Source: Heptranchias perlo
Lineage: Eukaryota
Assembly: GCF_035084215.1 (NCBI RefSeq)
Contig: NC_090364.1
Location: 4,278,001 to 4,342,000, forward strand
Direction: 5' to 3'
DNA: 64,000 nt
The position numbers were made by a program, and so were the translations under genes. Positions 5,128 through 60,757 of the stretch are shown here, one piece after another. Position 1 is the stretch's first letter. The number at the start of each line of letters is the position of its first letter. The notes beneath the pieces are model-generated. The model ran no database searches, was not told the DNA's origin, and saw nothing but the letters and a program-made list of their open reading frames with translations.

Positions 5128-5139
5128 GCTGTTAGTTTT

Positions 5140-21677: not shown

Positions 21678-21876
21678 CTTAACTTTTCCTGTTAACAGAG
21701 ATTACTCTTCAAACACCACTACAGGAACAACCTAACCTCTTCCCTCACAAGCTCTTGTATTTATACTACTGGGACAGCCTGCAGTTAAACAGGGTATGAC
21801 ATCACCAATGATGATTGACAATCCCTGATAGCCACTCAGGAATCTTCCATGAATCCAGGCACCAATTAACAAAGGA

Positions 21877-21996
21877 ATCACTGTATTTTGGTTTGTTTTG
21901 TCTTAAATAAAACACACCCTACTGCCCCCGCCCCCTCTTAAAAGAGGGGGGGGGGCCTAAAACAAAAAAAACTCAATAAAAACAAATTTTAAAAAA
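21877..21996 (+). mobile_element. Tx1-clade 3'UTR-only insertion in copy-4 promoter (duplicated at 37758-37877)
   Basis: GT-rich tract + cccctcttaaaagagggg hairpin + A-rich tail; TSD aattaacaaagg at 21864-21875 and 21995-22006. Confidence 0.82.
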
Positions 21997-23214
21997 TTAA
22001 CAAAGGGCAGGGGGTGGGGGGGTGATTCTCAGAGTCAATCAGAGCTTTGGAATACAGGCAGGATTGGAGGATTATTCTGTGATGTGATTGCTGTTGGTTT
22101 CTTTGACTTTCCTCAAACTGAATCTGATAACATCTCTGTTCCCAGAATCAGAGCTTCGCAACATATCTCAAAGAGATCGATGTGTTTACAAATGGAAATC
22201 CCATCTCGTAGATGGGGTCCAGCACAATTGGTTCTCAGTTAACCTGTCTCTTGGACAATTGATGGGAATCTTGGTGTGTCCAGAAAGAGTCCGTTATACC
22301 CAGATTCACAATGCTGATCACCACAATAGATTGAAGGAGACTGACCTTCACCAGACAGTCCGCAGTGAGTCCGCAAACCAACCGACAACGAGTCGGGGAA
22401 ATGGAAAGTGGATCAGTTGGGATCGTCAAACAGAATTCTGTTGCTCCATCACTGTAAAATGCGATGTGGAGTTTTATCTTCATGACCTTTAAGAGCTGTT
22501 AAGTCTAGAATTTACTTTGCACTGTTCATTCATCTCCTACAAACCTCCAATCTGTTGTGAGGAAAAGTTTTATACCTGAAATGTCAACTATCTCGCATTT
22601 TCTCAAGCGATATTGCCTGACCAGATTGTAGTATCATCAGTATTATGTTCCTATCCTGTTGTAACTCTGGTCGAACAACCAGACATTGAATAGAAGGACC
22701 ACAAAGCCTCAAGAACAGAGAAGAGTGAATTACATAAAACTTACACCAAAACAGGCAGTTAGGTCCAACCAGTTCATGTTGTTTATCCTCCACACAAGTA
22801 GTCCTAATCCCATGTGCCTGCCCTGTTACCAAACCATGGTATCTAGTCTTACTCATATAGGCATCCTCCATCCCCTGCCAGTCAAGCCAATATTTAATTT
22901 GTAGATAGTGTAATCATGTATAACAGCTCACCTTGTCTGCTACCTTCGCCCATGAAAGAATATTTATTGGGCTTATGTGCCTCAGTACTTCATTCACTCA
23001 AGGTGAACTATTTTTAAACACCATTACTAGGTGTATTTAATTTCTCATGACTTCAGGAAAACTCAAAAATCACTACTATTTGTAGGTTAAGGGCAGTCTT
23101 TTTTGTACAAGTTGTGGTAATTAGAAAAATACTAAGTGAAGTATAGATTATAATGTACATCAAATATTGAATTTCAATTAACTTGTGAATTCCTATAACA
23201 GTTAGTGGTGCTAT

Positions 23215-23350
23215 AAGGGCCTGTTTCCATGTTGTAACTTCTATGATTCTATTGCAGGCAATTGGGACTAGCTTAGTGGTATAAACTGGGCGACATGGAC
23301 ATGTTGGGCCGAAGGGCCTGTTTCCATGTTGTAACTTCTATGATTCTATA
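23215..23350 (+). mobile_element. Short CR1/HE1-type 3' tails, two in tandem (duplicated at 39096-39231)
   Basis: aagggcctgtttccatgttgtaacttctatgattctat occurs twice; second preceded by catggacatgttgggccg, a typical shark CR1 terminus. Confidence 0.65.
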
Positions 23351-24175
23351 ATCAAAAGTGATTAAGTCATTGGGAGATATACAGGAATCAATCAATCATT
23401 TATACCAGTCCTGATTACCCACCACCAACAAACTCCAAACCAGACAGACAGCAGTTTGATGTTTCTGCAGACTGGTGGGTTACTTAATTCCAGAACATTG
23501 CTAAGTATTGCCCTAGAGGAGAGAATGTTAAACAAAAGACTGCCTGCTCAAAGGAAGACACTAAGGTGGTTAATACTGTACAACACTTCAGTAATCCAGA
23601 GTGATGTGTGGCATGAGACTAATGCTAAAGTACCTCAATTGTAATTTCCCCCACTGACAGAAACAAGTCTGAAGCAGGTTGTAAAGCTGATGCACTTCCT
23701 TCTCCAGACTGGACAGTTATTACTGAAGACACTACAATGGGGAACAGGGGCCCTGAATTATTGTTTCAAAGCTTTGCAACATGCTGACATATGTAATGAA
23801 AACTGGAATTGTTACTGAGATCACAGTTGCAGAAATTGTGTATTTCCAAAATCCCCAATAAGCCTCTCAGTGAGGAGATGTGAGCACAGCCATCCTGGGC
23901 AGTACAGAATCAATTTTAGGAAGCTGGACCAGGAGGGGCTTATGTATTTGAAAAGTTCTAACTTGATCACTAGTTACTCAGCTGGGTGTCATGCAATGGG
24001 GATCTTGGTGATCAGATCAGCCACTCAATTATACAAAACAGACAAAGCAGTATAAAGATAAAGTTTTTATTTCTATGTACAGCAACAATGAGATGAGAAA
24101 AGTGGAAATTCACCACCAGAATTTAGTCACACTTCATTTTCACCAAGTATAGAATGAATGGTTATAGAACCCCAG

Positions 24176-27100
24176 TCAATGCAGGCTGTGCTTGTCAAAC
24201 AGGTACACTCCCATGCCATTCTCAGGGGCTCCCAGTCTCTTCAGGTTGGTGATGTGATCTCCAAGCTTCTTGATCATCTTCACTTGTTCATCCAAGTAGT
24301 GGGTCTCCAGGAAGTCACACAACTGGAAGAGAGAAACTAGTGAGTGTAGTTTGCTCAAACATGTCAAGGTGAGGATCATCTCCAGAAGTGACATTATTCT
24401 TGCTAATTTCCTGGACTAGAATAATGGTAAAAGTAGTGCACTTGGGGGGGATTCATACATTTAGCCAGACAAGACCAAGATTACCCCACAAATGGAAAGT
24501 CTGCTATTGTATTAAACTAGAAATCACCTTCAGTTCCATTTTGGTACCTTAGATATCAAGAGCCCTGGGAGTAGTTTAGTGAAACAAACCTATGAAAAAC
24601 CACCAATTTATAAGTGGCAGATTCCAATTCCACCCTCAACTAATTTGAAACTTACATGAGGGTCAGTGCTCTCCTTGGACAGTCTGTGCAGATCCAGCAG
24701 ACTCTGGTTCACATGCTTCTCCATCTGCAGAGCTCTCTGCATCACCTCCAGACCATTGCTCCACTCATCCTGCTCTGGCTTCTGAAAAAAAGGGAAGAGT
24801 TGTCTTGTCAGCACACCTACAATGGAAGCTGAAAGTCCAAGCACTGTTATTCTCAAGAACAGCAGGGTTAGAAGCAATGGACATTAATCGTGCACCTGAA
24901 GAATAGGAATACAAGGAAGGATTGTGGAGTCAATAACTGGGATGACATTGGAGGCCATTGCTGGATACTAGGAGCCGATCAGTCCATTGACTGCCATTTT
25001 AAACTTGCAGCTCTAATCCCAATTCCCACCTTTTTCCCATAACCCTAAACACCCTCCAAGTAGTTATGCATCCCTTTTGAAATAGGGAATTGGCTTTGCA
25101 TCTATGGCTTTCTAGATTAGAAAGCACTGTCAACTTGAAGCTTGTAACTATTTTTGCACTTGCAAACTAGTTTAAAAGTTGCATGTACTTGGATCCTCAA
25201 GTTGCTTTTTAAATATGTTCACACCTCCCCTCAAAAATCCTTCCTTTAGAAGGTTCTGCAATCTGCCATTCTTGTATTGTACTGGGAAGCAGTACAAACA
25301 TCTACCAATGCCATTTAGTGGTGAATTGGAGGAAAACAAGACTATGTCTTACTTTAGAGTTACTGACCAGCCTTGATCAACTCTTCCAAATATAAAAAAG
25401 TGTTTCTCCTGGAGTGGTTAGGGCCTGAACAAAAGGGCATGAGGGTGGTTACAAGGAGTGTGAACTTACTAGTTGACAATATTCCTTTAACCCCATTTCT
25501 TCCTCTGATCTCCACACCAGTTTCCTATTAATGTTACAATTTTTCTTCCAGTTCCTTGCCCCACAAAGATTTAGTTAGCAATTTGTGCAGAAACTCATCT
25601 TTCTGAACATCCACATACATTGATCCTCCTATATCCACTAGCTCAGTGACCCAAAGAACATCAACTCACCCTAATCACTTATACCTTTCCAAGTCCTCAC
25701 TTATTCTTGCCCAATACTAACTATTTTACTCAATCTCACTTGCTTTTAAGAACTTTTGGGTGTAATGGCAAGATATCAAACTATTTAAAATAATGAGGAA
25801 ACTTTTTAAGCTACCCAAGATTCATGACATTAAATCTAACCTTGACGTCCTCCAAGATGATTCGGCCCCCACGCTGATTCTGGAATTTCAGCAGTTTCTC
25901 AGCGTGCTCCCGTTCCTCATGTGACTGCTCCTTGAAGAACTCAGCAAAGTGACGCAGGGCAACATCATCCCGGTCAAAGTAATAGGACTGTGGGGAAAGA
26001 CAAAAATGGGAAGAGTCAGGTCAGGCCTAAATCTCATCCATGGCCAGCTCAAAATGATAGTAACATCATGGTAGATAAATTACCCATTTGCTGACTCAAT
26101 ACTTCGTTTTCAATTAAGGGGCACAGTTTCTAAACAAAAAGTGTTTTCCTTGCAAGTCAAACTCAATTTGATTCATTGATCTTCTAAAAATGTTGAAAAT
26201 CCCTCCATGAAGTAACCAAGAGTTCATTAGAAGAAGGACACATTATGGAGCAATAGGGCTTTTTGGATTAAAGTTTCATTTCAGCAATCAAACTACACTT
26301 TAGCTCAACTTATCAGTGGCATCTACTTCAGTTCCCAGATAGAAGTCTAAAATTAGTGCAGGGAAGAGAGCAAAAGGTTTCAAATTCAGTAGTTTAACAA
26401 CTTCAAACACTTGGGGCTCGATTTTAGCGTCAGGTTTCCTGCGGGTTTCCAGCAGGGGGGGGCCCCGAAAATCCCGATATTCAGTCACGTGACCGGATCA
26501 CGCCGAGATCCCAGCCACTTCCGGGTGCCGCGCAGGCCCCGCTGGTGGGAATCCCGCAGGCAATTAAAGCCAGCGGGGTTCCACTTGAGTGTACTTACCT
26601 TGCTTGTTGAGGTCATTAAATGAGCTGAAGCAGCTGTCAAAACAGGAAGTGTGGGATTTTAGCTTCAACGCAGTGTGTTTCACACACTGGTAGAAGCAGT
26701 CTCCCTTCAACCGGTCGTGTTCCAGCCAGCAGCCTGTGGCAGCTGCCAAAGGTGCACTCCACAGCGGGTGGGAGAGCCCTCACCCACGCAGGAGGCCACC
26801 GCGTCACGTAGGGCAACCCCTGCCCTCCACCACCCCCGCCAAGCCAGAGGACAGACCGACGTGAAACCGCAGCCCCAGTGCGAGGAACCACCTACCTAGC
26901 CTGCACAACCCCTCAGACCAACACCTGCCAGATGGGTGGTGCGTTGACATCCTCGGAGGACGAACAGCATGACCAGCCCCAGCAGCCTCGCAGTCCACCT
27001 CGGAGACGTGGAGCCCCCCAACACGGTGCTGCGGCACACCCACCTGCACAGCAGGAGGGAGGGCAACCGCAGAGAGAGATGCGTCGCAGGAGGCACTACC

Positions 27101-30100
27101 CTCCGCACAGGGTGTACAGACCGAGGCTCCCCTACACACGTGGCTCATGACGCCTCTGAGGAACCCCATCACCGAGCCGGAGCGTCGGTACAATGACAGC
27201 CACACTGCTACCAGGTCTACAATTGAGCAGACCATAGGGCTGCTCAAGATGCGCTTCGGGTGCCTTGATCGTTCTGGGGGAGCGCTCCAATACACACCAT
27301 TCAGAGTGGGACGAATCATAGTTGTCTGCTGTGCCCTGCATAACATGGCACTACAGAGAGGGGTGCCGCTGGAGGAGGCCCAATCCACACCCGCCACCCA
27401 CGTTGAGGACGGCGATGAGGAGGAGGAGGACGCGGATGCGCCAGAGGATGGTGGACGACCCATGCGCCGAACCACGACTCACCGGGATGCTCGCCGGGCC
27501 AGGGAGGCACTCATACGTCAACGGTTCTCCTAGAGTCAGACAGTGCAAGGCGCCCACATCTCCACACCTGCGAGGGGCCATACCAGCCCCCTCCACTGAA
27601 GACTGTTGCCAGTACTCCTGCACCCACAGCAGTGTGCCCAATGGGTGGCAGCAGGTGTTCGCCGTCATGATGGCCTGCACGGAACGCACCTATTGCACAG
27701 GCCGCGGAAGAATGGACGAGAGGTGGCAGGAGTGGTGAGAATATAGTATTTAATATGTACAATGTGAGATAATATAAACAAAAAGTGTACAAATTAATAG
27801 ACACCCTGGTGCATTCCCTTTGTGCTTATAACGCCTTTGGATTTATTTTGCGGGTACCCCTACGTGGTGCTACCCCTGTGGCTCCAGCAGAGGTAGTGGC
27901 AGGTTGCTCCTGTTCTCGCCCTGACCGGGTAGATGCTTTGGGCGGACGGCCCCTGGGTTTCGGTGCCCGTGAGGGCACCTCCACAGACTGCTCCTCCTGC
28001 ACCGGGGCAGGGGCAGACTCGGCCACCTGGAGAGGAGGCACCATTGCGGGTACTGGTTGAGGGGGGGCAACGGGTGGGACGTGGGGGCGCCTTGAGAAGC
28101 GTCCCCGCTTCCATGTCCCCGGTCACCATCATCCCTCTCGTGGCCTCGGCCCACATCACCCCGTCCACCCTGCTGGACGGCAGTTTGGATGGCATGTGTG
28201 AGGCCTTGCAAGGCCACCTAGTGTATCCGTCAGCCTGTTTATGGCGGCGGAATGTTGCTCACCCTGAATCCGTACAGCCGTTGTCAGGGCCTGCACGGAC
28301 TCGATGTGGAGCTGTGCGTGACGCTCGAGGGAGGCCAGCCTGTCCTCCACCGCAGACATTCCTGCGACACTGTCGCTGGTACCCTCCTGTACCTGCGCCA
28401 CCAATGCCCTCATGCAGGAGTTGGACTCCTCCATCGCCTGCGCAATTGTGGACAATGCACGCGGCACCTCTCCCAGTACCTCAGCAATTAGCTGGTGCCC
28501 CTCGACAACTCTCCTTTTCACTGGTGGCCCCCTGGGTTCAGCATCTGGGTCCGGCTGAGCAGAGCCTGGAGATGAGTGCTCCCACCGACGCAGACCCTCC
28601 GCGGCTGCCCCTGCCACCAGGGTCTGCTCATGCTCACTCGTGCGCGGTGAATCACCAAGTGCTACCCCAACTAGTTGGCGAGGGGGACCCACCGAGGTGC
28701 GTGTCTCTGCGCTGGTGGATGGTTGGCTCAGATGTGACGATGCACCCTCAGAGACCGGCATATCCTCTGAGGAATCGCCCTCCTCAATCGCAGCGCTCGC
28801 AGACGGCCCTGCAAGAGAACAGAGGGCACTATGAGGCATGTGCACCAACGTTACGGTGCGCCTGATGGCAGGTGATGATACGGTCACTCGCGATCATGGG
28901 TGTTGAGTGTCAGCTTTCCCTTACCGGCCGTTTCTGCAGCGACAGACTCGCCATCTGCGACCGACAGGCAATGTGGTGTGCGGGCGAGGTCGAGCGCCTC
29001 CACCTCTGCGTCTGCGTCGGTGAGGTCTACCAGGTGCGGCGGGCCACCTCCGGTGCGTGCCCTTTCCCTGTGGCTCTTGCTCCTCTTCTCCCGTCAAGGC
29101 AAAACACAGATGCGTGAGTGGGTGCGTATTGCATAGTGAGACGCATCGAGCATCGGTGTGGGTGGGTTGAGCGTGGGGCAGATGGATGGGAGGATGCGTG
29201 TGCCACATGCTCATCCCATTGCATAGGGATTGGGGTGTGTGGTAGTGTTCGGGTGGGGACAGGGACGGTGGGTACTTGCGGGCACGGCGAGGATGGTGAG
29301 TGAGTGGCTGTGAGGATTGCTGCGGGAGCGCTGTGTTGGCTCTGCAGGAGGGGTTGTGATCTGTTTGGCGTGATGGTGGGGACGGGTTGTGGGAGGGTGC
29401 GTTAGTGTACTCACCTTGCCGGACCTAGTGAGGTAATTGAACCGCTTGCGGCACTGCTCCCATGTCCTTGGGGTGTTGGCCCTGCTGCTGACCTCCGCCG
29501 CCACCTCTGCCCATGCCTTCCTGGTGGCGGCAGCAGGGCACTTGCGTCCATCCGCAGGGAAGAGCGTGTCCCTCCTCCTCCTCACGCCCTCCAGCGTCAG
29601 CTGAGGCGCAAGGTCTGAAAAACGTGGCGCAGCCTTTCCCCTCGGGTGAGCCATCATCTGTAGCCTACTGATTGCAGCAGGAGGGGCTTTGGGAGACTGC
29701 CCCTTTAAGTGGAGCTCCTACATCGCGTCGACGCAGCTGGGGAGCGGAGAACCCGGAAGCAGGGCTTAACCAGGTCAATTATCCCACGATCGCACGGGGG
29801 ACGCACGCAATTAGCCGTCCGCGTTTTCCACGCTCCCGGAGGACCACCTGCTGGGAACCCGCAGGCCTGCTAAAATCAAGCCCTTAGTGTCACCTCAGTG
29901 AGGAAAACTTCAGCACAACAGGAGTATAAGTATGTCAGTCAATTAGAAAGGGGAGGGGAAGAAAGCCAGAACCAGCCAATGTTCCACTAACTAGTCACCC
30001 AAATCTAATTTCCCCCCACCAAGTTGCAAAAGTCAAACAGGTTTATGAATCCTCAAGATGAATTCTCTATTACAAACTTAATGGAACCCTTGAGTTAACA

Positions 30101-30415
30101 TCAGGATAGGACACAGCTATTAGAGCAGGGAACAATCTGTTAATAAGACCTTCAATGAAATCATTGTGGTAAGAGTATTCACTAGATTGAGACTGGGGAG
30201 GTCACAGAGGTACACTCTGAAGCCAATTCATTGACAAGAAACTCTATCTGCTTAGAATACAATGACATCACAGCCTTAATTTTGAAACTGTGCCCCAAAA
30301 ATACAAAACTCACCATAGAGAGATAAACATAGGAGGAATAGAGCTCCATATTGATCTGCTTGTTGACACCATCCTCACACTCCTTGTGATAGTTCTGCCA
30401 CACTTGGGAGGCCAT
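24176..30415 (-). CDS. fth1: Ferritin H/M-type subunit, copy 5 (173 aa); exons 30314-30415, 25841-25987, 24656-24781, 24176-24322
   Basis: Starts MASQVWQNY; intact exons; intron 1 enlarged by a 3.5-kb Harbinger; ends FDKHSLH*. Confidence 0.92.
26932..27533 (+). pseudogene. Harbinger DDE transposase remnant (N-terminus fused out of frame to C-terminus)
   Basis: [11 protein letters not shown]...HRVYRPR then jumps to [57 protein letters not shown]...CCALHN (HARBI1-like); catalytic core missing. Confidence 0.88.
27826..29657 (-). CDS. Harbinger Myb/SANT-like DNA-binding protein (spliced; exon 1 29415-29657; downstream exons approximate, probably frameshifted)
   Basis: APRFSD...LFPADGRK...[13 protein letters not shown]...[13 protein letters not shown] trihelix motif followed by a GTGAGT donor; coiled-coil-like segment at 28156-28800. 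Confidence 0.78.
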
Positions 30416-30495
30416 CTTAACTTTTACTATTAGCAAAACTCTCACTTTAAACACCACTGCAGAAACAATGTCACCTCTTCCCTCACAAGCTTTTG

Positions 30496-30746
30496 TATTT
30501 ATATTACTGGGACAGCCTGCATTTGAACAGGTTATGACATCACCAATGATGATTGACAATCCCTGATAGCCACTCAGGAATCGTCCATGAATCCAGGCAC
30601 CAATTAACAAAGGACAGGGGGTGGGGTGTGATTCCCAGAACCAATCAGAACTTTGGAATACAGGCAGGATTGGAGGATTATTGTGTGATGTCATTGCTGT
30701 TGGTTTCTTTGACTTTCCTCAAACGAAATCTGATCACATCTCTGTT
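30496..30746 (-). promoter_or_regulatory. Copy-5 ferritin promoter, sitting head-to-head with the Tx1 5' end
   Basis: TATAAATA (30496-30503), two TGACATCA motifs, three CCAAT boxes; same block as in other copies. Confidence 0.75.
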
Positions 30747-31477
30747 GGGTTGTCTTTCAGACACACCAGCTCGGCATTGGAGCTGATTCTGGCTGAACTG
30801 CCACTGAGTGGAGAGCAGAGAGAGCAGAGGGAGCAGGCCCTTGCCCGGGTCCCTCTGAGTCAAGGAGAAGGAGAAGGAGAAACCACCATCAACAAGGAGG
30901 GAGGGAGGGAGAAGAATACTACCAAACAGCAGCCGGGAGGGGTTGTGCTGCTGCTGCTGCTGCTGGTTTGCGACACCGAACAGAGGGAGGAAGAGGAGGT
31001 CGGTGCAGTGAGGTGCGTCGGCTGAAGGTAGGGGGAGGAAGAAGACTTCAGAGGACAGGGGTCCCCCCCAAGTGTCTGGCCCAGGACAGCTGGAGCTGCC
31101 TGGGTGAAGTTACTTTTTCAATCTTTGGAGGACTGAGCCTCGGCAGCTCCAGCTGTCTAGGGGAAGACATCTCCTCCCCCTGCCCACTGGAAGACAGACA
31201 GAAGAAGATCCACCTTTTAAGGTGCAACCCCGCCCCTCTTCCACCCACTTCTGCAGCAGCCTACCCCTGCAGACTCCCTCCTTCCCATTCCACCATTAAT
31301 CCCTCCCACCTTCTCTTGCTCTCCCGGATATTCTGGGGGAAAGTAAAACCAGCAAAGGGGCCCCTCTCCCAACCAAGCTCTGGGATTCGGGGAGAGAGGT
31401 TTCCTCAGGGCTTCTTTTAAAAAGGCCTAATTTCATCAGTGGGCCCGAGACTTGGGGTGGGTGTGGCTCCTGAAGTC

Positions 31478-33519
31478 ATGGCGTCACCATCTTCGCCGGT
31501 GCCGGGACCCAGCAGGACGTATGCGGCGGTTACCTCGGGGGCCGCTCCTACAGTTCGTGCCGCTCCTGCTGGGCCGGCGCCTTTCCGCCTCATTACCAGG
31601 AAGCATGGGGTGAAGAGCTACGCCCACCCCAACATGACCATTGAGGCCTGCGTTAAGGCCATGGCCGAGGTTGTCGGCCCCTCGGCCATCGTCGCGGCCT
31701 CAAAAATGTACGGGAGGGCGGTGTTCTTCCTGAGGTCCGAGCGGGCGGTGTCCCTGGCCCTTAGTAAGGGGCTCACGGTGGGCGGGACCTTCCTGCCGGT
31801 GGACCCGCTGGAGGCCACCGCGCAGCGGGTCATTCTATCTAACGTCCCGCCTTTCCTGTCGGACGAGCTCCTCCTCCCCCACCTACGTCAACTGGGGGAG
31901 GTGAGGTCGGGGGTAACGCCGCTGCCGCTCGGACTCAGGGAGAACAGCCTCCGGCATGTTTACTCCTTCCGTCGCCAGGCATTCGTCAAGCTGGCACGGG
32001 AGGAGGTTACGGAGGGGGGCTTTAACGCCCTCCACGAGGGGACCCCTTACCGCGTCTTTTGGACGGCAGAGGGTGGGCGGTGCCATGCCTGTAAGGAGGT
32101 GGGGCACCTGAAGAGGAACTGCCCTGCCTCTCAGGCCGCCAAAACAGCTACGGCGGCCGGGGCTGGCGCCGCCACCGCTCCTCCCCCCCAACCCCGCCCC
32201 CGCGTCGGGAGAGTCAACTGCGCGGGTGGAGGTTGTCGGCGAGGCCTCCGCCGGTGGGGGGGGGGGGGAGCGGGGGGAAGGGAACCCTCGCCCGAAAAAA
32301 GCGCGGAGAAAGAGAAAGAATCTCGAGGCTGGTCCCCAGGACATGAATAATCTTAGTCAGCCCGAGGCCGTGACCGCGGCCAGTCAACACCTCGCGGTCG
32401 CGACAGAGCCCGGGCTGGCGGGTGATCAGGAGGGAGCGGAGGTGGGGGCCCCAGCAGACATGGAGATCCCCCTCCCTCCGCGACCCTCCGGGAAGAAGAA
32501 AAGGCGCCACTCCCTGGAAGCGGAGGAGGTCCCTGGTAAGGGACGGCCCCCCGTGGAAGGGGAGGTGGCGCCAGCCACGGATCCTGTGGCCCCGCCCATT
32601 ATTTCTAACCAGCGGCAGGGGTCGTCTGCCTCTCGGGGGGAGGTGACCGAGCCCGTGCCTCCCGGGGGGGATGGGGAGACCCTGCTGATGGGGGGGGTCG
32701 CGGATCCGTGTACTGACGCCAGTATCCCGTTCACCGGGTCGGGAGTCCTGGGTGCCGGGTTGGGCGAGGCCGTTGCGGCCGAATTCGTCTGCCCCCGGCT
32801 TGACCTCTCCCAGGACCTGCTCGACCTGGTGGTTGGTTTTAATCGAAACATCTCACCGGCCGGGTCGGTCGGTGGCGGTGTGGGTGGGGAGACCCCCTCC
32901 TCTCAGTCTCTGGGCACGGTGCCGGGTGAGGTGGGAGAACACGTTCTCCCCGGTTTCCCCCTATATCCGGGTGCCAGTTTTTCACCGCTCGGAGGCTGGG
33001 GAGGGTCCCCGCCCGGCGCCGCCCTCTGACCCGGACCCCCCGGTGGAGCCCGGGGAGGACTCCTCTGCCGACGATCCTGGGGGTGGGATCGTGACAGAGG
33101 CGGGGCCGGCCGGCGCGGCCGTCCCGTTCTCCGCACCCTGTGCGGGGAGTGGGTTGGCCGCGGGCGACGATGACCCGGAGGAGGACGGAGACTCGGTGGT
33201 GGGCACTTGGGAGGATTTAGAGTTCGCCGCCAGTGAGGTGGTGGACGCCCTCGTGCCCTGCACCGAGTCTCCCCTCATCCCCGTTGAGGAACTCCGGAAT
33301 TTTGCGTCCGGTTGGAGCCATCGTCGCGATGGCGTCCGGCGGGCCCTCGACCGTTGGTCGGAGCCGGCGCAACTAATCTGCTCGGTCCGGGCTGCCGTCG
33401 CGTCCGTGGCCGCGGAAGAGTACGGCGGCGGGGACGGGCTGCGCCGGCTCAGTTCCCTCCTCGCCGGGCTCTTGGGGGAGTGGCGGTCGACTAGCGGCCC
33501 CGCTCCCTCTGCGCTTTAG
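31478..33519 (+). pseudogene. Tx1 ORF1 (nucleic-acid-binding/gag-like), split over three frames
   Basis: MASPSS...RKHGVK...IVAASKMYGRAVFFL...VILSNVPPFL...HVYSFRRQAF...CHACKEVGHLKRNC (CX2CX4HX4C) is characteristic of Tx1 ORF1; frame breaks lie in or near C/G runs (could be sequencing errors). Confidence 0.8.
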
Positions 33520-33548
33520 GTTTAAGTAGGTTGCGCTGTGCTCTTGTC

Positions 33549-37454: not shown

Positions 37455-37556
37455 ACACTTGGTTTTGGTTTATTTGGTTTTTAGTATTTAAGCACACCCC
37501 ACACCCCCCCTTCTTATAAAAGGGGGGCCTATTAACAAAAAAAAAAAAAAAAAAAA

Positions 37557-37734
37557 TCCAGGCACCAATTAACAAAGGACAGAAGGTGGGGTGTGATTCC
37601 CAGAACCAATCAGAGCTTTGGAATACAGGTGGGATTGGAGAATTATTCTGTGATGCCATTGCTGTTGGTTTCTTTGACTTTCCTCAAACGAAATCTGATC
37701 ACATCAAAAAAAAAAAGAAAAAAAAAAAAAAAAA
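37557..37734 (+). other. 149-bp ferritin-promoter fragment followed by a second poly(A): probable 3' transduction
   Basis: 37557-37705 aligns to 30592-30740 with 8 mismatches, then ~29-nt poly(A), then the sequence resumes as a copy of 21854 onward. Confidence 0.75.
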
Positions 37735-43000: not shown

Positions 43001-46000
43001 ACCGAGGCTCCCCTACACACGTGGCTCATGACGCCTCTGAGGAACCCCATCACCGAGCCGGAGCGTCGGTACAATGACAGCCACACTGCTACCAGGTCTA
43101 CAATTGAGCAGACCATAGGGCTGCTCAAGATGCGCTTCGGGTGCCTTGATCGTTCTGGGGGAGCGCTCCAATACACACCATTCAGAGTGGGACGAATCAT
43201 AGTTGTCTGCTGTGCCCTGCATAACATGGCACTACAGAGAGGGGTGCCGCTGGAGGAGGCCCAATCCACACCCGCCACCCACGTTGAGGACGGCGATGAG
43301 GAGGAGGAGGACGCGGATGCGCCAGAGGATGGTGGACGACCCATGCGCCGAACCACGACTCACCGGGATGCTCGCCGGGCCAGGGAGGCACTCATACGTC
43401 AACGGTTCTCCTAGAGTCAGACAGTGCAAGGCGCCCACATCTCCACACCTGCGAGGGGCCATACCAGCCCCCTCCACTGAAGACTGTTGCCAGTACTCCT
43501 GCACCCACAGCAGTGTGCCCAATGGGTGGCAGCAGGTGTTCGCCGTCATGATGGCCTGCACGGAACGCACCTATTGCACAGGCCGCGGAAGAATGGACGA
43601 GAGGTGGCAGGAGTGGTGAGAATATAGTATTTAATATGTACAATGTGAGATAATATAAACAAAAAGTGTACAAATTAATAGACACCCTGGTGCATTCCCT
43701 TTGTGCTTATAACGCCTTTGGATTTATTTTGCGGGTACCCCTACGTGGTGCTACCCCTGTGGCTCCAGCAGAGGTAGTGGCAGGTTGCTCCTGTTCTCGC
43801 CCTGACCGGGTAGATGCTTTGGGCGGACGGCCCCTGGGTTTCGGTGCCCGTGAGGGCACCTCCACAGACTGCTCCTCCTGCACCGGGGCAGGGGCAGACT
43901 CGGCCACCTGGAGAGGAGGCACCATTGCGGGTACTGGTTGAGGGGGGGCAACGGGTGGGACGTGGGGGCGCCTTGAGAAGCGTCCCCGCTTCCATGTCCC
44001 CGGTCACCATCATCCCTCTCGTGGCCTCGGCCCACATCACCCCGTCCACCCTGCTGGACGGCAGTTTGGATGGCATGTGTGAGGCCTTGCAAGGCCACCT
44101 AGTGTATCCGTCAGCCTGTTTATGGCGGCGGAATGTTGCTCACCCTGAATCCGTACAGCCGTTGTCAGGGCCTGCACGGACTCGATGTGGAGCTGTGCGT
44201 GACGCTCGAGGGAGGCCAGCCTGTCCTCCACCGCAGACATTCCTGCGACACTGTCGCTGGTACCCTCCTGTACCTGCGCCACCAATGCCCTCATGCAGGA
44301 GTTGGACTCCTCCATCGCCTGCGCAATTGTGGACAATGCACGCGGCACCTCTCCCAGTACCTCAGCAATTAGCTGGTGCCCCTCGACAACTCTCCTTTTC
44401 ACTGGTGGCCCCCTGGGTTCAGCATCTGGGTCCGGCTGAGCAGAGCCTGGAGATGAGTGCTCCCACCGACGCAGACCCTCCGCGGCTGCCCCTGCCACCA
44501 GGGTCTGCTCATGCTCACTCGTGCGCGGTGAATCACCAAGTGCTACCCCAACTAGTTGGCGAGGGGGACCCACCGAGGTGCGTGTCTCTGCGCTGGTGGA
44601 TGGTTGGCTCAGATGTGACGATGCACCCTCAGAGACCGGCATATCCTCTGAGGAATCGCCCTCCTCAATCGCAGCGCTCGCAGACGGCCCTGCAAGAGAA
44701 CAGAGGGCACTATGAGGCATGTGCACCAACGTTACGGTGCGCCTGATGGCAGGTGATGATACGGTCACTCGCGATCATGGGTGTTGAGTGTCAGCTTTCC
44801 CTTACCGGCCGTTTCTGCAGCGACAGACTCGCCATCTGCGACCGACAGGCAATGTGGTGTGCGGGCGAGGTCGAGCGCCTCCACCTCTGCGTCTGCGTCG
44901 GTGAGGTCTACCAGGTGCGGCGGGCCACCTCCGGTGCGTGCCCTTTCCCTGTGGCTCTTGCTCCTCTTCTCCCGTCAAGGCAAAACACAGATGCGTGAGT
45001 GGGTGCGTATTGCATAGTGAGACGCATCGAGCATCGGTGTGGGTGGGTTGAGCGTGGGGCAGATGGATGGGAGGATGCGTGTGCCACATGCTCATCCCAT
45101 TGCATAGGGATTGGGGTGTGTGGTAGTGTTCGGGTGGGGACAGGGACGGTGGGTACTTGCGGGCACGGCGAGGATGGTGAGTGAGTGGCTGTGAGGATTG
45201 CTGCGGGAGCGCTGTGTTGGCTCTGCAGGAGGGGTTGTGATCTGTTTGGCGTGATGGTGGGGACGGGTTGTGGGAGGGTGCGTTAGTGTACTCACCTTGC
45301 CGGACCTAGTGAGGTAATTGAACCGCTTGCGGCACTGCTCCCATGTCCTTGGGGTGTTGGCCCTGCTGCTGACCTCCGCCGCCACCTCTGCCCATGCCTT
45401 CCTGGTGGCGGCAGCAGGGCACTTGCGTCCATCCGCAGGGAAGAGCGTGTCCCTCCTCCTCCTCACGCCCTCCAGCGTCAGCTGAGGCGCAAGGTCTGAA
45501 AAACGTGGCGCAGCCTTTCCCCTCGGGTGAGCCATCATCTGTAGCCTACTGATTGCAGCAGGAGGGGCTTTGGGAGACTGCCCCTTTAAGTGGAGCTCCT
45601 ACATCGCGTCGACGCAGCTGGGGAGCGGAGAACCCGGAAGCAGGGCTTAACCAGGTCAATTATCCCACGATCGCACGGGGGACGCACGCAATTAGCCGTC
45701 CGCGTTTTCCACGCTCCCGGAGGACCACCTGCTGGGAACCCGCAGGCCTGCTAAAATCAAGCCCTTAGTGTCACCTCAGTGAGGAAAACTTCAGCACAAC
45801 AGGAGTATAAGTATGTCAGTCAATTAGAAAGGGGAGGGGAAGAAAGCCAGAACCAGCCAATGTTCCACTAACTAGTCACCCAAATCTAATTTCCCCCCAC
45901 CAAGTTGCAAAAGTCAAACAGGTTTATGAATCCTCAAGATGAATTCTCTATTACAAACTTAATGGAACCCTTGAGTTAACATCAGGATAGGACACAGCTA

Positions 46001-46296
46001 TTAGAGCAGGGAACAATCTGTTAATAAGACCTTCAATGAAATCATTGTGGTAAGAGTATTCACTAGATTGAGACTGGGGAGGTCACAGAGGTACACTCTG
46101 AAGCCAATTCATTGACAAGAAACTCTATCTGCTTAGAATACAATGACATCACAGCCTTAATTTTGAAACTGTGCCCCAAAAATACAAAACTCACCATAGA
46201 GAGATAAACATAGGAGGAATAGAGCTCCATATTGATCTGCTTGTTGACACCATCCTCACACTCCTTGTGATAGTTCTGCCACACTTGGGAGGCCAT
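40057..46296 (-). CDS. fth1: Ferritin copy 6 (duplicate of copy 5); exons 46195-46296, 41722-41868, 40537-40662, 40057-40203
   Basis: Identical exons to copy 5 at offset 15881. Confidence 0.92.
42295..45764 (+). mobile_element. Harbinger transposon, duplicate of 26414-29883
   Basis: Same TIRs, transposase remnant (43028-43414) and Myb/SANT exon (45296-45538). Confidence 0.92.
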
Positions 46297-47366
46297 CTTA
46301 ACTTTTACTATTAGCAAAACTCTCACTTTAAACACCACTGCAGAAACAATGTCACCTCTTCCCTCACAAGCTTTTGTATTTATATTACTGGGACAGCCTG
46401 CATTTGAACAGGTTATGACATCACCAATGATGATTGACAATCCCTGATAGCCACTCAGGAATCGTCCATGAATCCAGGCACCAATTAACAAAGGACAGGG
46501 GGTGGGGTGTGATTCCCAGAACCAATCAGAACTTTGGAATACAGGCAGGATTGGAGGATTATTGTGTGATGTCATTGCTGTTGGTTTCTTTGACTTTCCT
46601 CAAACGAAATCTGATCACATCTCTGTTGGGTTGTCTTTCAGACACACCAGCTCGGCATTGGAGCTGATTCTGGCTGAACTGCCACTGAGTGGAGAGCAGA
46701 GAGAGCAGAGGGAGCAGGCCCTTGCCCGGGTCCCTCTGAGTCAAGGAGAAGGAGAAGGAGAAACCACCATCAACAAGGAGGGAGGGAGGGAGGGAGGGAG
46801 AAGAATACTACCAAACAGCAGCCGGGAGGGGTTGTGCTGCTGCTGCTGCTGCTGGTTTGCGACACCGAACAGAGGGAGGAAGAGGAGGTCGGTGCAGTGA
46901 GGTGCGTCGGCTGAAGGTAGGGGGAGGAAGAAGACTTCAGAGGACAGGGGTCCCCCCCAAGTGTCTGGCCCAGGACAGCTGGAGCTGCCTGGGTGAAGTT
47001 ACTTTTTCAATCTTTGGAGGACTGAGCCTCGGCAGCTCCAGCTGTCTAGGGGAAGACATCTCCTCCCCCTGCCCACTGGAAGACAGACAGAAGAAGATCC
47101 ACCTTTTAAGGTGCAACCCCGCCCCTCTTCCACCCACTTCTGCAGCAGCCTACCCCTGCAGACTCCCTCCTTCCCATTCCACCATTAATCCCTCCCACCT
47201 TCTCTTGCTCTCCCGGATATTCTGGGGGAAAGTAAAACCAGCAAAGGGGCCCCTCTCCCAACCAAGCTCTGGGATTCGGGGAGAGAGGTTTCCTCAGGGC
47301 TTCTTTTAAAAAGGCCTAATTTCATCAGTGGGCCCGAGACTTGGGGTGGGTGTGGCTCCTGAAGTC

Positions 47367-49405
47367 ATGGCGTCACCATCTTCGCCGGTGCCAGGACCCA
47401 GCAGGACGTATGCGGCGGTTACCTCGGGGGCCGCTCCTACAGTTCGTGCCGCTCCTGCTGGGCCGGCGCCTTTCCGCCTCATTACCAGGAAGCATGGGGT
47501 GAAGAGCTACGCCCACCCCAACATGACCATTGAGGCCTGCGTTAAGGCCATGGCCGAGGTTGTCGGCCCCTCGGCCATCGTCGCGGCCTCAAAAATGTAC
47601 GGGAGGGCGGTGTTCTTCCTGAGGTCCGAGCGGGCGGTGTCCCTGGCCCTTAGTAAGGGGCTCACGGTGGGCGGGACCTTCCTGCCGGTGGACCCGCTGG
47701 AGGCCACCGCGCAGCGGGTCATTCTATCTAACGTCCCGCCTTTCCTGTCGGACGAGCTCCTCCTCCCCCACCTACGTCAACTGGGGGAGGTGAGGTCGGG
47801 GGTAACGCCGCTGCCGCTCGGACTCAGGGAGAACAGCCTCCGGCATGTTTACTCCTTCCGTCGCCAGGCATTCGTCAAGCTGGCACGGGAGGAGGTTACG
47901 GAGGGGGGCTTTAACGCCCTCCACGAGGGGACCCCTTACCGCGTCTTTTGGACGGCAGAGGGTGGGCGGTGCCATGCCTGTAAGGAGGTGGGGCACCTGA
48001 AGAGGAACTGCCCTGCCTCTCAGGCCGCCAAAACAGCTACGGCGGCCGGGGCTGGCGCCGCCACCGCTCCTCCCCCCCAACCCCGCCCCCGCGTCGGGAG
48101 AGTCAACTGCGCGGGTGGAGGTTGTCGGCGAGGCCTCCGCCGGGGGGGGGGGGGGGAGCGGGGGGAAGGGAACCCTCGCCCGAAAAAAGCGCGGAGAAAG
48201 AGAAAGAATCTCGAGGCTGGTCCCCAGGACATGAATAATCTTAGTCAGCCCGAGGCCGTGACCGCGGCCAGTCAACACCTCGCGGTCGCGACAGAGCCCG
48301 GGCTGGCGGGTGATCAGGAGGGAGCGGAGGTGGGGGCCCCAGCAGACATGGAGCTCCCCCTCCCTCCGCGACCCTCCGGGAAGGAAAGGCCCCACTCCCT
48401 GGAAGCGGAGGGGGGTTCCTGGTAAGGGACGGCCCCCCGTGGAAGGGGAGGTGGTGCCAGCCACGGATCCTGTGGCCCCGCCCATTATTTCTAACCAGCG
48501 GCGGGGGTCGTCTGCCTCTCGGGGGGAGGTGACCGAGCCCGTGCCTCCCGGGGGGGATGGGGAGACCCTGCTGATGGGGGGGGTCGCGGATCCGTGTACT
48601 GACGCCAGTATCCCGTTCACCGGGTCGGGCGTCCTGGGTGCCGGGTTGGGCGAGGCCGTTGCGGCCGAATTCGTCTGCCCCCGGCTTGACCTCTCCCAGG
48701 ACCTGCTCGACCTGGTGGTTGGTTTTAATCGAAACATCTCACCGGCCGGGTCGGTCGGTGGCGGTGTGGGTGGGGAGACCCCCTCCTCTCAGTCTCTGGG
48801 CACGGTGCCGGGTGAGGTGGGAGAACACGTTCTCCCCGGTTTCCCCCTATATCCGGGTGCCAGTTTTTCACCGCTCGGAGGCTGGGGAGGGTCCCCGCCC
48901 GGCGCCGCCCTCTGACCCGGACCCCCCGGTGGAGCCCGGGGAGGACTCCTCTGCCGACGATCCTGGGGGTGGGATCGTGACAGAGGCGGGGCCGGCCGGC
49001 GCGGCCGTCCCGTTCTCCGCACCCTGTGCGGGGAGTGGGTCGGCCGCGGGCGACGATGACCCGGAGGAGGACGGAGACTCGGTGGTGGGCACTTGGGAGG
49101 ATTTAGAGTTCGCCGCCAGTGAGGTGGTGGACGCCCTCGTGCCCGACACCGAGTCTCCCCTCATCCCCGTTGAGGAACTCCGGAATTTTGCGTCCGGTTG
49201 GAGCCATCGTCGCGATGGCGTCCGGCGGGCCCTCGACCGTTGGTCGGAGCCGGCGCAACTAATCTGCTCGGTCCGGGCTGCCGTCGCGTCCGTGGCCGCG
49301 GAAGGGGACGGCGGCGGGGTCGGGCTGCGCCGGCTCAGTTCCCTCCTCGCCGGGCTCTTGGGGGAGTGGCGGTCGACTAGCGGCCCCGCTCCCTCTGCGC
49401 TTTAG
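47367..49405 (+). pseudogene. Tx1 copy B ORF1, frameshifted
   Basis: Same protein as 31478-33519 in several frames. Confidence 0.8.
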
Positions 49406-49434
49406 GTTTAAGTAGGTTGCGCTGTGCTCTTGTC

Positions 49435-52400
49435 ATGGAGATCACCATAGCCAGCCTCAACATCAACGGCGGCAGAGACGCCCGCCGTAGATTTGACAAG
49501 TTCTCGGTCCTGCGGGACGGGAAGTATGCGGTGTGCTTTCTGCAGGAAACCCACACCGTTCCGGGAGACGAGGCCACGTGGATCCTGGAATGGGGAGGGG
49601 GGGTCTACTTGAGTCACCTCGCCAGCGTTTCGAGCGGGGTGGCCATCTTGTTGGCCCCGACTTTTCAGCCGGAGATCTTGGGGGTCAAGGAGCCGGTGCC
49701 GGGCCGCTTGCTCCACGTGGCCCTTCGCCACGGGGACGTGCCGCTTCACCTGGTGAACGTGTACGCCCCCTGGTCCGGAGCCGAGCAAGTGAGCTTCTTT
49801 GAGGAAGTGTCCACTTACCTAAACTCCGTCGACGCCGGCGAGTGCATTATCCTCGGGGGGGATTTTAACCGTACCCTCGAGGCGAGGGACCGCTCCGGTC
49901 CCGCGCGTGCCCGAACGGCGACGGAGAAGTTGAGGGACCTGGTCGGGTCCTTCAACTTGGTGGACGTCTGGCGGAATCTCCATCCCGACTCCGGCCAGTT
50001 CACCTTTGTGAGGGCCGGAGGAGGGAGCTCCAGAATCGACCTCCTGTACGTTTCGCGGGCGTACGCCTCCTGCGTCCCGTCGGCCTCCATCCGGCCGGTG
50101 TCGTGCTCGGACCACTACCTGGTGTGGATGGAGCTCGCTCTGCTCCGCGCCCGGTCGGGGTCCGCGCACTGGCACTTTAACAACCGGCTGCTGGAGGACG
50201 CGCGGTTCCGGGACTCGTTCCGTCTGTTCTGGAGCGACTGGAGAGGGAAGCGGGGAGGCTTCTCCTCCTTGAGGCTATGGTGGGACGTGGGCAAGGCTCA
50301 CGTCCGCCTCTTCTGTCAAGAGTACGCGAGGGGGTCGACTAAGAGGCGGGAGTCCGAGGTCAGGCGGTTGGAGCAGGAGGTGCTTGGCCTGGAGTCCCGT
50401 CTCGGTCAGGCCGCCGAGGATCCGGCCCTGCGGCAGGTGTACGAAGAGAGGAAGGACGCTCTGAGGGACCTGCAACTGGTCGGGTCCCGAGGAGCGTACG
50501 TGAGGTCGCGGCTCCAGCTCCTTCAGGACCTGGACTGCGGCTCTCCCTTCTTCTACTCGCTGGAAAAGCGGCGGGGGGCTCGTAAGCAGCTCCTTACGCT
50601 GCTGGCCGACGACGGGTCCCTCGTCTCGGACCCGGAGGGAGTCAGGGCCCGTGCTCGATCTTACTACGAGGCTCTGTTCTCTCCGGATCCGTCCAGCGAG
50701 GAGGCGCGCAGAGTTTTGTGGGAGGACCTGCCGAAGGTTGGCCCGGAGGACGCCGACAGTATGGATGCTCCGCTGAGTTTGGCGGAGCTGACCGGCGCCC
50801 TCCACCAGCTCTCCAGGGGCAAGTCCCCGGGGCTGGACGGGCTGACCGTGGAGTTCCTCAGGGCCTTCTGGGACGTCCTGGAGGGCGACTACGCGCGGGT
50901 CCTGGGGGAATGTCTGGCGACCGGGCGGTCGTGGCGCAGAGCGGTCGTGGTCCTGCTGCCTAAGAAGGGGGATCTCCGTCACCTTAAAAACTGGCGCCCG
51001 GTCTCCCTCCTCAGCACGGATTATAAGGTCTTTGCCAAGGCGATGTCTGCTCGCCTGGGCACCGTGCTGGCCCACATGATCCACCCCGACCAGTCCTACA
51101 CGGTCCCGGGCCGGAAGATCCACGATAACATCCATCTGGTCTGGGACCTGATCCACCATTCCCAGAGGGCTGGTCTGTCGGTCGCCTTCCTTTCCTTAGA
51201 TCAGGAGAAGGCGTTCGACAGGATGGATCACGAGTATCTATTCGGGACACTGCGCGCTTTCGGGTTCGGGTCGCATTTCGTCGCTCGGATCCGACTTCTG
51301 TACGCCGCCGCGGAGTGTCTGATTAAGGTTAACGGATCCTTGACTGCGCCCCTTCGCTTCGGGAGAGGAGTGCGTCAGGGGTGCCCCATGTCCGGCCAAT
51401 TATACGCCGTCTGCGTGGAGCCTTTCCTGCGCCTCTTGCGCAAGAGGTTGTCGGGACTGGCTCTGCGCGAGCCGGACGTGGAGGTCGTCCTTTCGGCTTA
51501 CGCCGACGACGTGCTCCTCGTGGTCACGGATCCCCTTGACTTGCAGAGGATGCGCGAGTGCCAAGAGGTCTACTCTGCGGCGTCTTCCGCAAGGATCAAC
51601 TGGGAGAAATGTTCCGGACTCCTGGTGGGTCAGTGGCGGGTGGACTCCCTGCCGGAGGAGCTCAGGCCTTTCGCCTGGAGTACCACGCACCTCCGGTACC
51701 TGGGAGTCTACCTCGGCCCTGCCGAGGAAGCCTGGCCGGCGAACTGGGAAGAGCTGGAGGCCAAGGTCGCCGCTCGCCTGGCGCGCTGGACAGGACTGCT
51801 CCGAGTGTTATCCTACAGGGGTCGAGTGCTGGTCATAAACCAGCTGGTGGCCGCCATGTTGTGGTACAGATTGGTCACTTTGACCCCACCCCCCGAGTTT
51901 GTCGCCAAGATTCAGAGGAAGTTCGTCGACTTCTTCTGGGCCAAAGGGATACACTGGGTCGCTGCCGCGGTCCTGAGTCTCCCGCTTAGGGAGGGCGGTC
52001 AGGGGCTGGTGTGCGTCCGCACCCAGGTGGCAACTTTCCGCCTTCGGACGCTGCGGCGATACCTGTACGTTGAGCGTCCTCTTAGATGGCGTGCGCTGGC
52101 GACGTATTTTTTCCGCCAGCTGCACGGCCTGAACTACGACACGCAGCTCCTGTTCCTCTCGCTGGTGGGCGGCCGCACGTCTTTGCAGGAGCTGCCTGTC
52201 TTTTACCAGGATCTGCTCAGGGTCTGGAACATGGTCGCCTCCGGTCGGTGCTCTCGCCCGTCAGGGGTAGCGGCCGTCCTGCAGGAGCCGCTGCTCGGGA
52301 ATCCGTTCCTCCGCGATATCGGCTTCGGCCACTCGCGGCTGTCGGTGCGGAGGGCCGTGGCCGGTCGGGTGACCAGAGTCAGGGACGTCCTGGATGGCGG

Positions 52401-53325
52401 TGGGTCGGGTTAGTTGGAGCCGTGGGCGCTCGCCGCACGGATGTCCTCGTGGCGTGCCGGGGACGCAGCCGCCGCCATCCAGGCGTTGAAATCGGCGCAC
52501 GGACCTGACTCCACTCGGGATGTGGAGGCGGCTCAGGCGTGCGGAGCCATCCCGTCCGACCTGACCCCCGTTCGGACGGAATTCCTCCTCGGCGCCAAAC
52601 CCCGGAACCTCCCTCGGAGGGCTGTGCCTCACAACTTGAGCCGTCTCTCGGAAATTCCCTCCGTGCCGTTTCACACCGCGCGGAGGGATTTCCTGTACGG
52701 GCTGCTCCTGCACACCATCCACTTCCTCGCCCTCGTCTCTCGCCCGGACACGCCCTGGCGTACCGTCCTGCCGTCCGGCGGAGGCCCCCAGTGGAGGGCT
52801 CTCTACTCGGGGTTCCTCCCGTGTTACATCGGGGATCTGGGGTGGAGGGTGGCGCACGGAGCAGTCGCGTGCAACCGGCGGTTACGCCATTTTACGGACT
52901 CCCAGGCCGCCTGCAATTTTTGCGGCCTGGATGAGTCCGTGTTTCATTTTTTCGCTGGGTGTGGGAGACTGCAGCCCCTGTTTGATTATTTGGAGGGGCT
53001 GCTCCTCAAGTTCTGGCTGCACTTCAGTCCCACGCTCCTGATCTTTGGGCGCCCGGTGAGGAGGGGGGCGGGCAGGTCGGTGGACGTCCTCGTGGGCTTC
53101 CTCCTGGGCCTGTCCAAGGTGGCCATCCACAGGTCCAGGTTGCTCGCGGTCCGTGGGGGCGGTCGCTCGGCCTGTCTGCTTCTCTTCCGCGGAATGCTCC
53201 GCGCCCGGGTGGCCCTGGAGATGGAGCATGCGGTGTCTGCCGGTACACTCGAGGCTTTCCGCGACCGATGGGCACCGCAGGGGCTGGAGTGTATCCTGAA
53301 CAAGGAAAATAAAATTTTAATTTGA
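49435..53325 (+). pseudogene. Tx1 copy B ORF2, disabled
   Basis: In-frame TAG at 52411-52413 (TGG in copy A) and a 9-bp deletion near 50925 (ATGEMPLSWRR -> ATGRSWRR). Confidence 0.92.
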
Positions 53326-54364
53326 TGCCTGGTTTTGGTTTATTTTGTTTTTAGTATTTAAGAAAGAAAAAAGAAAAAAAAAAATCTGATGACATCTCTG
53401 TTCCCAGAATCAGAGCTTCACAACATATCTCAAAGAGATCGATGAGTTTACAAATGGAAATCCCATCCCGTAGATGGTGTCGAGCACAATCGGTTCTAAG
53501 TTATCCCGTCTCTTGGACAATTGATGGGAATCTAGGTGTGTCCAGAACGAGTCCGTTATACCCAGATTCACAATGTTGATCAGCACAATAGATTGAAGGA
53601 GACTGACCTTCACCAGACGGTCCGCAGTGAGTCCGCAAACCAACCGACAACGAGTCGGGGAAATGGAAAGTGGATCAGTCGGGAGCTTCAAACAGAACTC
53701 TGTTGCTCCATCACTGTAAAGGGTGATATGGAGTTTTATCCCCATGAAATTTAAGAACTGCAAAGTCCAGTAATTAGTTTGCACTGTTTCTTCATTGCCT
53801 GAAAATCTCAAGGCCGTTTGAGGAAAGTTTTTACCCTGAAGCGTCAACCGTCTTGTGTTTTCTCCACCGACACTGCCTTATCGTTTATAGAGACATCCCC
53901 TGCCAGTTAAGCCAATATTTAGTTTGTAGATAGTTTAATCATGTTTAACAGCTCACCTTGTCTGCCAGCTTAGTCTTTGAGAATATTTAATGAGCTCATG
54001 TGCATAAGTACTTTCAAATGAAGTTAATTCATTCCCTTTAGGTTAACTATTTTTGAACATTAGAGGTATTTCATCATCTAAACTCATCCCCACACACTTT
54101 GTGGGTTCAGGGCAGTCTTTTTGAACAAGTTGTGGTAATTAGAAATATACAAAGTGAAGTATGGAAGATAATGTACAGCAACTGTTTGATTAAAATTAAC
54201 CGGTGGATTCCTGTAACAGGTAGTGATGCTGTAATAGAAATTGTGTTTAACTTGTTGGGAGACACAAATTGTACAAAAGCAAATGATTCTTCCAGTATAT
54301 CAGTACAGATCTCTCCACTTTACCCAACACCAAGTACGATATTCTGCAGTTTGATGTATGGTTG

Positions 54365-55449: not shown

Positions 55450-58976
<3,527 letters not shown>

Positions 58977-60652: not shown

Positions 60653-60757
60653 CATGGAGAGGTAAACATAGGAGGAATAGAGCTCCATATTGATCTGCTT
60701 GTTGACACCATCCTCACACTCCTTCTGATAGTTCTGACACACTTTGGAATTCATCAT
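60653..60757 (-). other. Orphan ferritin exon 1 with its own promoter (alternative first exon or truncated pseudogene)
   Basis: (M)[34 protein letters not shown] then a GTTAGT donor; TATA/CCAAT block at 60799-61010; no exons 2-4 before the copy-7 promoter. Confidence 0.8.

Follow-up and report, generated by a model that had tools for sequence, protein, structure and literature searches.

A 15.9-kb tandem duplication of a whole ferritin gene is present in the assembly and is young. Because one end of the duplication is the fresh junction of a retrotransposon that favors ferritin promoters, this Tx1-clade element probably helps to multiply the ferritin genes it targets. The duplication lies in the window, which is the whole 64,000-nucleotide stretch analyzed (G000:C43:4278001-4342000, in a genome of 3.25 Gb); coordinates without a prefix are window positions. 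Duplication by this kind of event is a known type of outcome, and the Tx1 family behind it is the more interesting object. In the assembly, the gene-4 target carries a young insertion junction, the upstream element is a hybrid, and the flanks are nearly identical; from this we infer the route of duplication.

The first duplicated unit (21854-37734) comprises the remainder of the gene-4 promoter, a spacer, ferritin gene 5, Tx1 copy A, a transduced promoter piece, and a poly(A) tract; the second (37735-53384) repeats the same flank and contains ferritin gene 6 and Tx1 copy B (both units are defined by alignment and are unstranded). When the window is compared with itself, a single alignment joins 21852-37492 with 37733-53362 at 99.1%. 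Mapped along the units, identity is not uniform across flank and element but falls into three zones. Across the 10.4 kb of the first zone (21854-32260), the units differ by three substitutions and one 8-bp repeat indel, with a single SNP in the 8.9 kb of duplicated flank; the second zone (32261-36370) is 98.6% identical (45 mismatches and six gaps over 4.1 kb), and the third, the final 1.1 kb (36371-37492), is 93.9% identical (61 mismatches). A preceding sequence-only reading had described about 8.9 kb of non-Tx1 DNA and the Tx1 5' end as almost identical, and the Tx1 bodies as diverging past about 32460, more so toward their differing 3'UTR ends; the zones bear out both descriptions. As in large target-site duplications (TSDs), the direct tandem flanks are almost identical and a poly(A) tract adjoins the endonuclease target at one breakpoint.

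The duplicated genes belong to a tandem, minus-strand array of four-exon genes, which we take to be ferritin genes from their sequence, translation, and exon layout. Gene 5 (24179-30415, minus strand) has the vertebrate ferritin layout of four exons, the first three of 102, 147, and 126 bp, and an open frame of 173 amino acids (about 175 are expected); the translated exons of its duplicate, gene 6 (40060-46296, minus strand), are the same. Intron 1 of gene 5 contains an unstranded Harbinger-like DNA transposon (26413-29885, approximate bounds; DDE_Tnp_4 and Myb/SANT remnants with short inverted ends), with a copy in gene 6 at about 42294-45766. The canonical CAGTG loop is absent by sequence from six of eight upstream stretches; genes 5 and 6 each have a candidate.

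At the left end of the duplication, the native target site of the gene-4 promoter (21849-21876, plus strand) reads ATGAA|TCCAGGCACC. Its copy opens unit 2 at position 37735, equivalent to 21854, and the left overlap is AA alone. The final poly(A) tract (37706-37734, plus strand) abuts this copy directly and is the duplication breakpoint, just as the sequence-only reading had placed it, behind poly(A) at the preferred AA| junction. There are 25 such junctions in the genome (poly(A)|TCCAG(G/A)CACC, compared with zero for the reversed control). Both units also include what remains of an old Tx1 3'UTR, in which a short TTAACAAAGG stretch is duplicated (21877-21998, plus strand; bounds judged by eye).

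The same reading overlooked a 149-bp, C38-type promoter piece (37557-37705, plus strand) that lies between two poly(A) tracts. This piece is 99% identical to promoters on contig C38 and 95% identical to the local promoter, and a local 150-bp TSD of copy A is rejected on this ground; it is read as a 3' transduction from the promoter type of another contig. Tails of the form poly(A)-piece-poly(A) are common across the Tx1 family, and among 45 matches (from the best 40 of 126 candidates) there is no second instance of the 149-bp piece with poly(A) after it. On two other contigs (L123 on C402 and L124 on C1392), an element and a ferritin promoter piece are followed by unrelated DNA; these pieces may have been exported by 3' transduction or by segmental copying.

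The element itself is assigned to the Tx1 clade of non-LTR retrotransposons from its ORF2 domains, ORF1, poly(A) tails, and closest protein. ORF2 has an N-terminal APE endonuclease (PF03372) and a reverse transcriptase (PF00078) in Pfam; by far its best match among 8000 candidates scored is Xenopus Tx1 ORF2 (50% over 98%), and it has a partial 67% match to a shark protein, which together with the ferritin array points to a cartilaginous fish as the probable host. ORF1, of 680 amino acids in element L002 (contig C38) and others, has no Pfam match and is broken in copies A and B. Family members lie immediately upstream of ferritin promoters, in head-to-head orientation to the genes. In an element set picked by similarity to the window rather than by census, six of the seven other full-length loci from the genome search touch ferritin promoter or array DNA, and the 5' end of copy A's subfamily has 24 exact matches, each with the same promoter junction, in several promoter variants. 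Both proportions, within this non-census set, are above the 20% of flanks of one sequence type by which target-specific families have been defined (PMC4494074).

The 3' ends of the family fall at many sites: in a fetched set biased to promoters, 29 of 55 distinct 3' junctions match a promoter reference immediately behind the first poly(A). Since all 24 5' ends share one junction while the 3' ends vary, the 5' ends appear to be set by homology, via target sequence on the RNA or via a resident copy. Target specificity extends to the young copies only, because the 3' ends of older relatives are scattered over many contigs. The fixed junction, CATCTCTGTT|GGGTTG, ends the upstream half ("head") of the gene-5 promoter (30592-30746, plus strand), and elements form head-to-tail arrays with promoter pieces as spacers. 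In element F1 (L032), the head changes promoter type inside shared sequence. The 5' flanks of L004, L005, L007, and L008 belong to a subfamily with a different head, in which a TATA-like motif occurs; here the element may have captured some other promoter as its 5' end. Two inverted fragments are among the truncated Tx1 3' pieces that lie in or near promoters and spacers at 12030-12482, 10363-10570, 5062-5128, and 61075-61137.

Alignments indicate that copy A (30747-37556, plus strand) is a composite whose 5' 1.5 kb is copied from B, whose middle is of B's rare lineage, and whose last 1.1 kb is 99.9% like L002. Its ORF2 (33549-37454, plus strand) is open and encodes 1301 amino acids with both enzymatic domains, matching the Xenopus Tx1 149-kDa protein at 50% over 98%. 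The final 1122 bp differ from L002 at one site; on this ground, and with three sites in 10.4 kb of flank, the 3' end of copy A and the flanks look young. Copy A's first tail has no match among the aligned tails of other copies. Copy B (46628-53384, plus strand), the resident element, has a frameshifted ORF1 and a 3' end of an older type (best other match, 94%) that lacks the 3'UTR hairpin. The sequence-only reading had given copy B a normal 18-21-bp TSD and a dead ORF2. The stop codon at 52411-52413 agrees with the latter; the TSD is 18 bp long, with one mismatch between its 5' copy (46610-46627) and its 3' copy (53385-53402, plus strand).

The same reading had given copy A the 5' junction of B and a foreign, intact 3' part beginning after 32460. 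The ORF2 is indeed open; ORF1 is frameshifted, and the sequence is foreign only from about 35400-36370 onward. Over 32466-35400 the claim fails: 48 sites (the last at 35372) are common to copies A and B and occur in none of 27 other aligned copies, and the two are mutual best matches, at 97% compared with 91% for the next copy (best 40 of 204 candidates) and, in a second comparison, at 99% compared with 93-94% (best 40 of 231). Relative to L002, ORF1 has a +1 shift near 32183 and a shared net change of -17 near 32940-32954, and neither set of 40 includes a third copy of this lineage. The middle zone holds 13 A-only and 11 B-only changes, mostly nonsynonymous in ORF2 and some at CpG, whereas the final 1.1 kb of copy A has no private sites compared with about 3.7 expected (P 0.024). 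The shared lineage of the middle zone is cleanly explained by no model; a donor from another haplotype, or a template switch via an allele of B, would fit.

Switch points are not claimed to cluster at a G-rich tract near 32250: the first differences fall at 32183, 32255/32466, and 32460, and the preceding 400 bp are too conserved to place a switch. Just before the tail of copy A, a 3'UTR inverted repeat (37494-37527; C-run, TTCTTATAAAA, G-run) is kept in most copies and is absent from B. Three copies of an internally deleted Tx1 (L059, L060, and L061) join the 5' 2 kb to the last 0.2 kb; each is followed by a spacer and then a gene without exons 3 and 4, and their ORF1 is the next closest to that of A and B (89-91%).

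A one-step origin, in which priming of cDNA in the promoter of gene 4 was followed by its joining to the resident element B some 10 kb away, is a reading that we hold with evenly balanced confidence. In this reading, a Tx1-clade LINE with a preference for the upstream side of ferritin promoters made a nick at AA|TCCAGGCACC in the promoter of gene 4, and an RNA carrying the transduced promoter piece was reverse-transcribed there; the junction anatomy shows these two steps. The cDNA would have made no new 5' junction. Instead it would have paired with B, which lies about 10 kb downstream, either on the same chromatid or on its sister, and repair synthesis would then have copied everything back to the nick. 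This would leave a tandem duplication of 15.9 kb that adds one ferritin gene and two target promoters, with a hybrid as the upstream element. Such an event would be the long-range form of a family routine: where the 3' priming site is variable and the 5' end is fixed by homology, the duplicated stretch would equal the distance from the nick to the homologous junction (18 bp, about 65 bp, about 155 bp, or, here, 8.9 kb plus the resident's 5' end).

Both halves of this route, priming at the gene-4 promoter and joining to a resident about 10 kb away, had been proposed in the sequence-only reading. The priming is well supported, by poly(A) at a recurrent target, the 3'-transduced piece, and the very young 3' end. 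The joining is supported by other neighboring pairs in the genome, and is not separable by sequence from insertion followed by unequal crossover, which predicts the same product. If cDNA joins a resident, the upstream copy should have its neighbor's 5' end and its own 3' end. Among 594 pairs from 35 elements, compared over the first 1.6 kb with a threshold of at most one difference, this near-identity was found in 4 of 16 upstream/downstream neighbors and in none of 578 other pairs (Fisher p 3.5e-7, for pairs that are not independent). The four pairs are L051 and the next element, E4/E5, E1/E2, and A/B. L051, with a poly(A) tail of 97 nt, and E1 are each first in an array and each have a unique 3' junction. 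At the gene-1 promoter (4005-4600, plus strand), tandem units of head plus Tx1 tail match the joining prediction in miniature, with identical 5' junctions, different tails, and two priming sites. The pair test left out L049, L004, L005, L006, L008, and L047; L049, a 99.9% whole-length segmental copy of L048, would be a nonneighboring pair with an identical 5' end.

Several observations weigh against cDNA joining. The donor would need B's rare lineage and ORF1 deletion, and no third copy was found among those scored; moreover, 12 of the 16 neighboring pairs do not have near-identical 5' ends, and DNA-level exchange is evident in the cluster. Elements E2, E3, and E4 have one common tail and junction, as do G1, F2, and H1, so unequal crossover also builds arrays, and crossover is probably the better fit for the E4/E5 pair. 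A two-step origin of the 15.9-kb duplication is to be weighed, in which an element first inserted completely in the gene-4 promoter and then paired out of register with B, in the promoter of gene 5, so that crossing over near 31.5-32.5 kb doubled the DNA in between. Such a precursor is readily envisaged, because local insertions that reuse the head are common. The identical tails demonstrate DNA-level copying of array members, and a 46-47-kb tandem duplication in the same C43 ferritin cluster has both of its ends in Tx1 arrays. Nevertheless, we regard two steps as somewhat unlikely: two rare events close in time are required, the 149-bp piece with its poly(A) recurs in none of the 45 matches searched, first-in-array hybrids with fresh tails (e.g., L051) are not easily produced, and the shared rare lineage of A and B is left unexplained. 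Under one-step joining and under insertion followed by crossover alike, the gene duplication would be the element's doing and would bring it new targets.

Two further explanations dispense with a recent duplication by either route. In an older duplication, the Tx1 bodies would have diverged since and been patched by gene conversion, with the left 10.4 kb homogenized recently. The nearly equal numbers of A-only and B-only changes in the middle zone, and their character, are as expected for decay in place, and the ORF1 lesions are common to both copies; even so, the lack of A-private sites in the final 1.1 kb and the need for a conversion tract of more than 10 kb that reaches the left breakpoint make this history improbable. 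Equally improbable is an assembly chimera, in which the gene-4 promoter element would exist in one haplotype only and the assembler would have switched from one haplotype to the other within the shared 5' end of Tx1, doubling the flank. The single SNP in the 8.9-kb flank is compatible with low heterozygosity. In a read check confined to contigs from four runs of a single sample, which may be the source of this assembly itself, flank contigs match exactly at a depth of 22-30 in X1 compared with 15-26 for other-locus contigs; this is short of the doubling expected for a homozygous duplication, and depth without a single-copy baseline is not copy number. At several A-only or A+B-only sites the letter in the window is in no read contig, which contigs that lose rare variants may explain. 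Against a chimera, the join would be confined to less than 1 kb of identical sequence (31504-32466), a length that long reads normally span; the 20-Mb contig resolves neighboring arrays at 97-99% identity; and the poly(A)|target junction would still be a real insertion.

Chimeric L1s were reportedly described by Gilbert et al. in 2005. L1-associated tandem duplications of 1-10 kb, described as large TSDs, have been ascribed to break-induced replication (bioRxiv 10.1101/2024.12.14.628481), and duplication-type L1 bridges (14 of 152) and pairing of cDNA with nearby DNA have been reported in tumors (bioRxiv 10.1101/2024.08.27.596794); a review calls the origin of such duplications unknown (PMC10760644). 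As described in these reports, the L1 events resemble the one-step joining favored here in that a kilobase-scale tandem duplication has one breakpoint at poly(A) on an endonuclease site and in that cDNA can pair with nearby homologous DNA. They differ in that they arose in somatic or cultured cells and involve an element of weak specificity, whereas the duplication here is in a genome assembly, is presumably inherited, involves a target-preferring Tx1, and copies an intact gene together with the element's own target. Kilobase-scale duplications made by retrotransposition are known mostly from tumors and cultured cells, and this would be an inherited case.

Target-specific Tx1-clade families include Tx1L, Keno, Kibi, Koshi, and Tx1-Mar, with targets among snRNA and 5S genes, satellites, microsatellites, and transposons (PMC4494074). 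Like them, the present family has two ORFs and an APE endonuclease with a reverse transcriptase, favors a target present in many copies, and inserts in tandem. In contrast to the families listed there, it targets promoter regions in a multigene family that codes for protein, at several sites within about 300 bp, which would widen the known target range. The R1 and R2 elements of Drosophila rDNA likewise form tandem arrays at a multicopy target with precise 5' junctions, which are attributed to annealing of target sequence on the RNA; R2 is cotranscribed with its host gene (PMC2718515). As these elements are described, R1 tandems are spaced by a 14-bp TSD, whereas the spacers here are tens to hundreds of base pairs of promoter, and here an upstream copy can carry its neighbor's 5' end. 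That the 5' junction is fixed while the 3' nicks vary is relevant to the question of how the 5' ends of LINEs become joined.

In two sharks, 155 FTL and 179 FTH1 copies are reported in clusters, with a shared and ancient expansion and ovary expression of the largest cluster (bioRxiv 10.1101/2024.09.09.611499). The genome examined here, too, has well over 100 copies in clusters, a likeness of description; the relevant passages of that preprint name no mechanism and no link to a retrotransposon. Because the shark clusters are reported to be large and ancient, the Tx1 family cannot be assumed to have founded the ferritin expansion. The earlier claim that the element drives gain of ferritin copies thus holds for the 15.9-kb event, but it is limited by the reported age of the expansion and by several duplications in the cluster whose ends are not Tx1 junctions. 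A literature search, apart from Repbase, most subscription papers, and supplements (which may list elements near ferritin clusters), found no Tx1-ferritin link and no Tx1 element that targets ferritin promoters, and two shark genome preprints make no mention of ferritin. Large L1 TSDs, target-specific Tx1 families, and shark ferritin clusters are each known, and their linkage was not found in that search. The family would be a testable engine for turnover in these very large clusters. On a broader and rather doubtful view, the Tx1 family would borrow the divergent side of a germline-expressed ferritin promoter, would never build a new 5' junction, would integrate through homology to a downstream head or resident, and would duplicate a gene when that homology lies in the next unit, so multiplying its own protein-coding target and keeping a family of more than 100 copies turning over.

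The ferritin cluster at C43:4.25-4.78 Mb contains about 80 gene copies (79 exon-4 and 83 exon-2 matches). Genome-wide, the exon-4 motif occurs 179 times, which may include pseudogenes, compared with zero for the control; at least 71 exon-4 matches lie in small groups at C38:9.6-17.7 Mb, in blocks that are 99% segmental copies of one another. Several other duplications of 15-47 kb, at 97-99% identity, are found in the C43 cluster, and about four of seven flank-containing duplication blocks have an end in Tx1; the others include exon ends. At C43:4454158 (L064), the poly(A) of an array abuts a target site, and from that site runs a 15.2-kb stretch with three ferritin genes that is a 98.8% copy of a template 176 kb away (4614637-4629876); this may be a second long case of a duplication opened by a poly(A)|target junction. 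The array at C43:4454209-4488150 has five full-length Tx1 copies in tandem, three with one tail, and thus grew partly by DNA-level copying. An inverted older paralogue (about 75-92%) of the gene block in the window lies at C43:4.72-4.78 Mb (L106-L110), where the promoters are without full-length Tx1. Within the window, an orphan exon 1 and promoter (60644-60760), without exons 2-4 of its own, lies between genes 7 and 8, and other LINE-like fragments, judged by eye, occupy a spacer and intron 1 of gene 7 (54300-55230 and 57564-58310).
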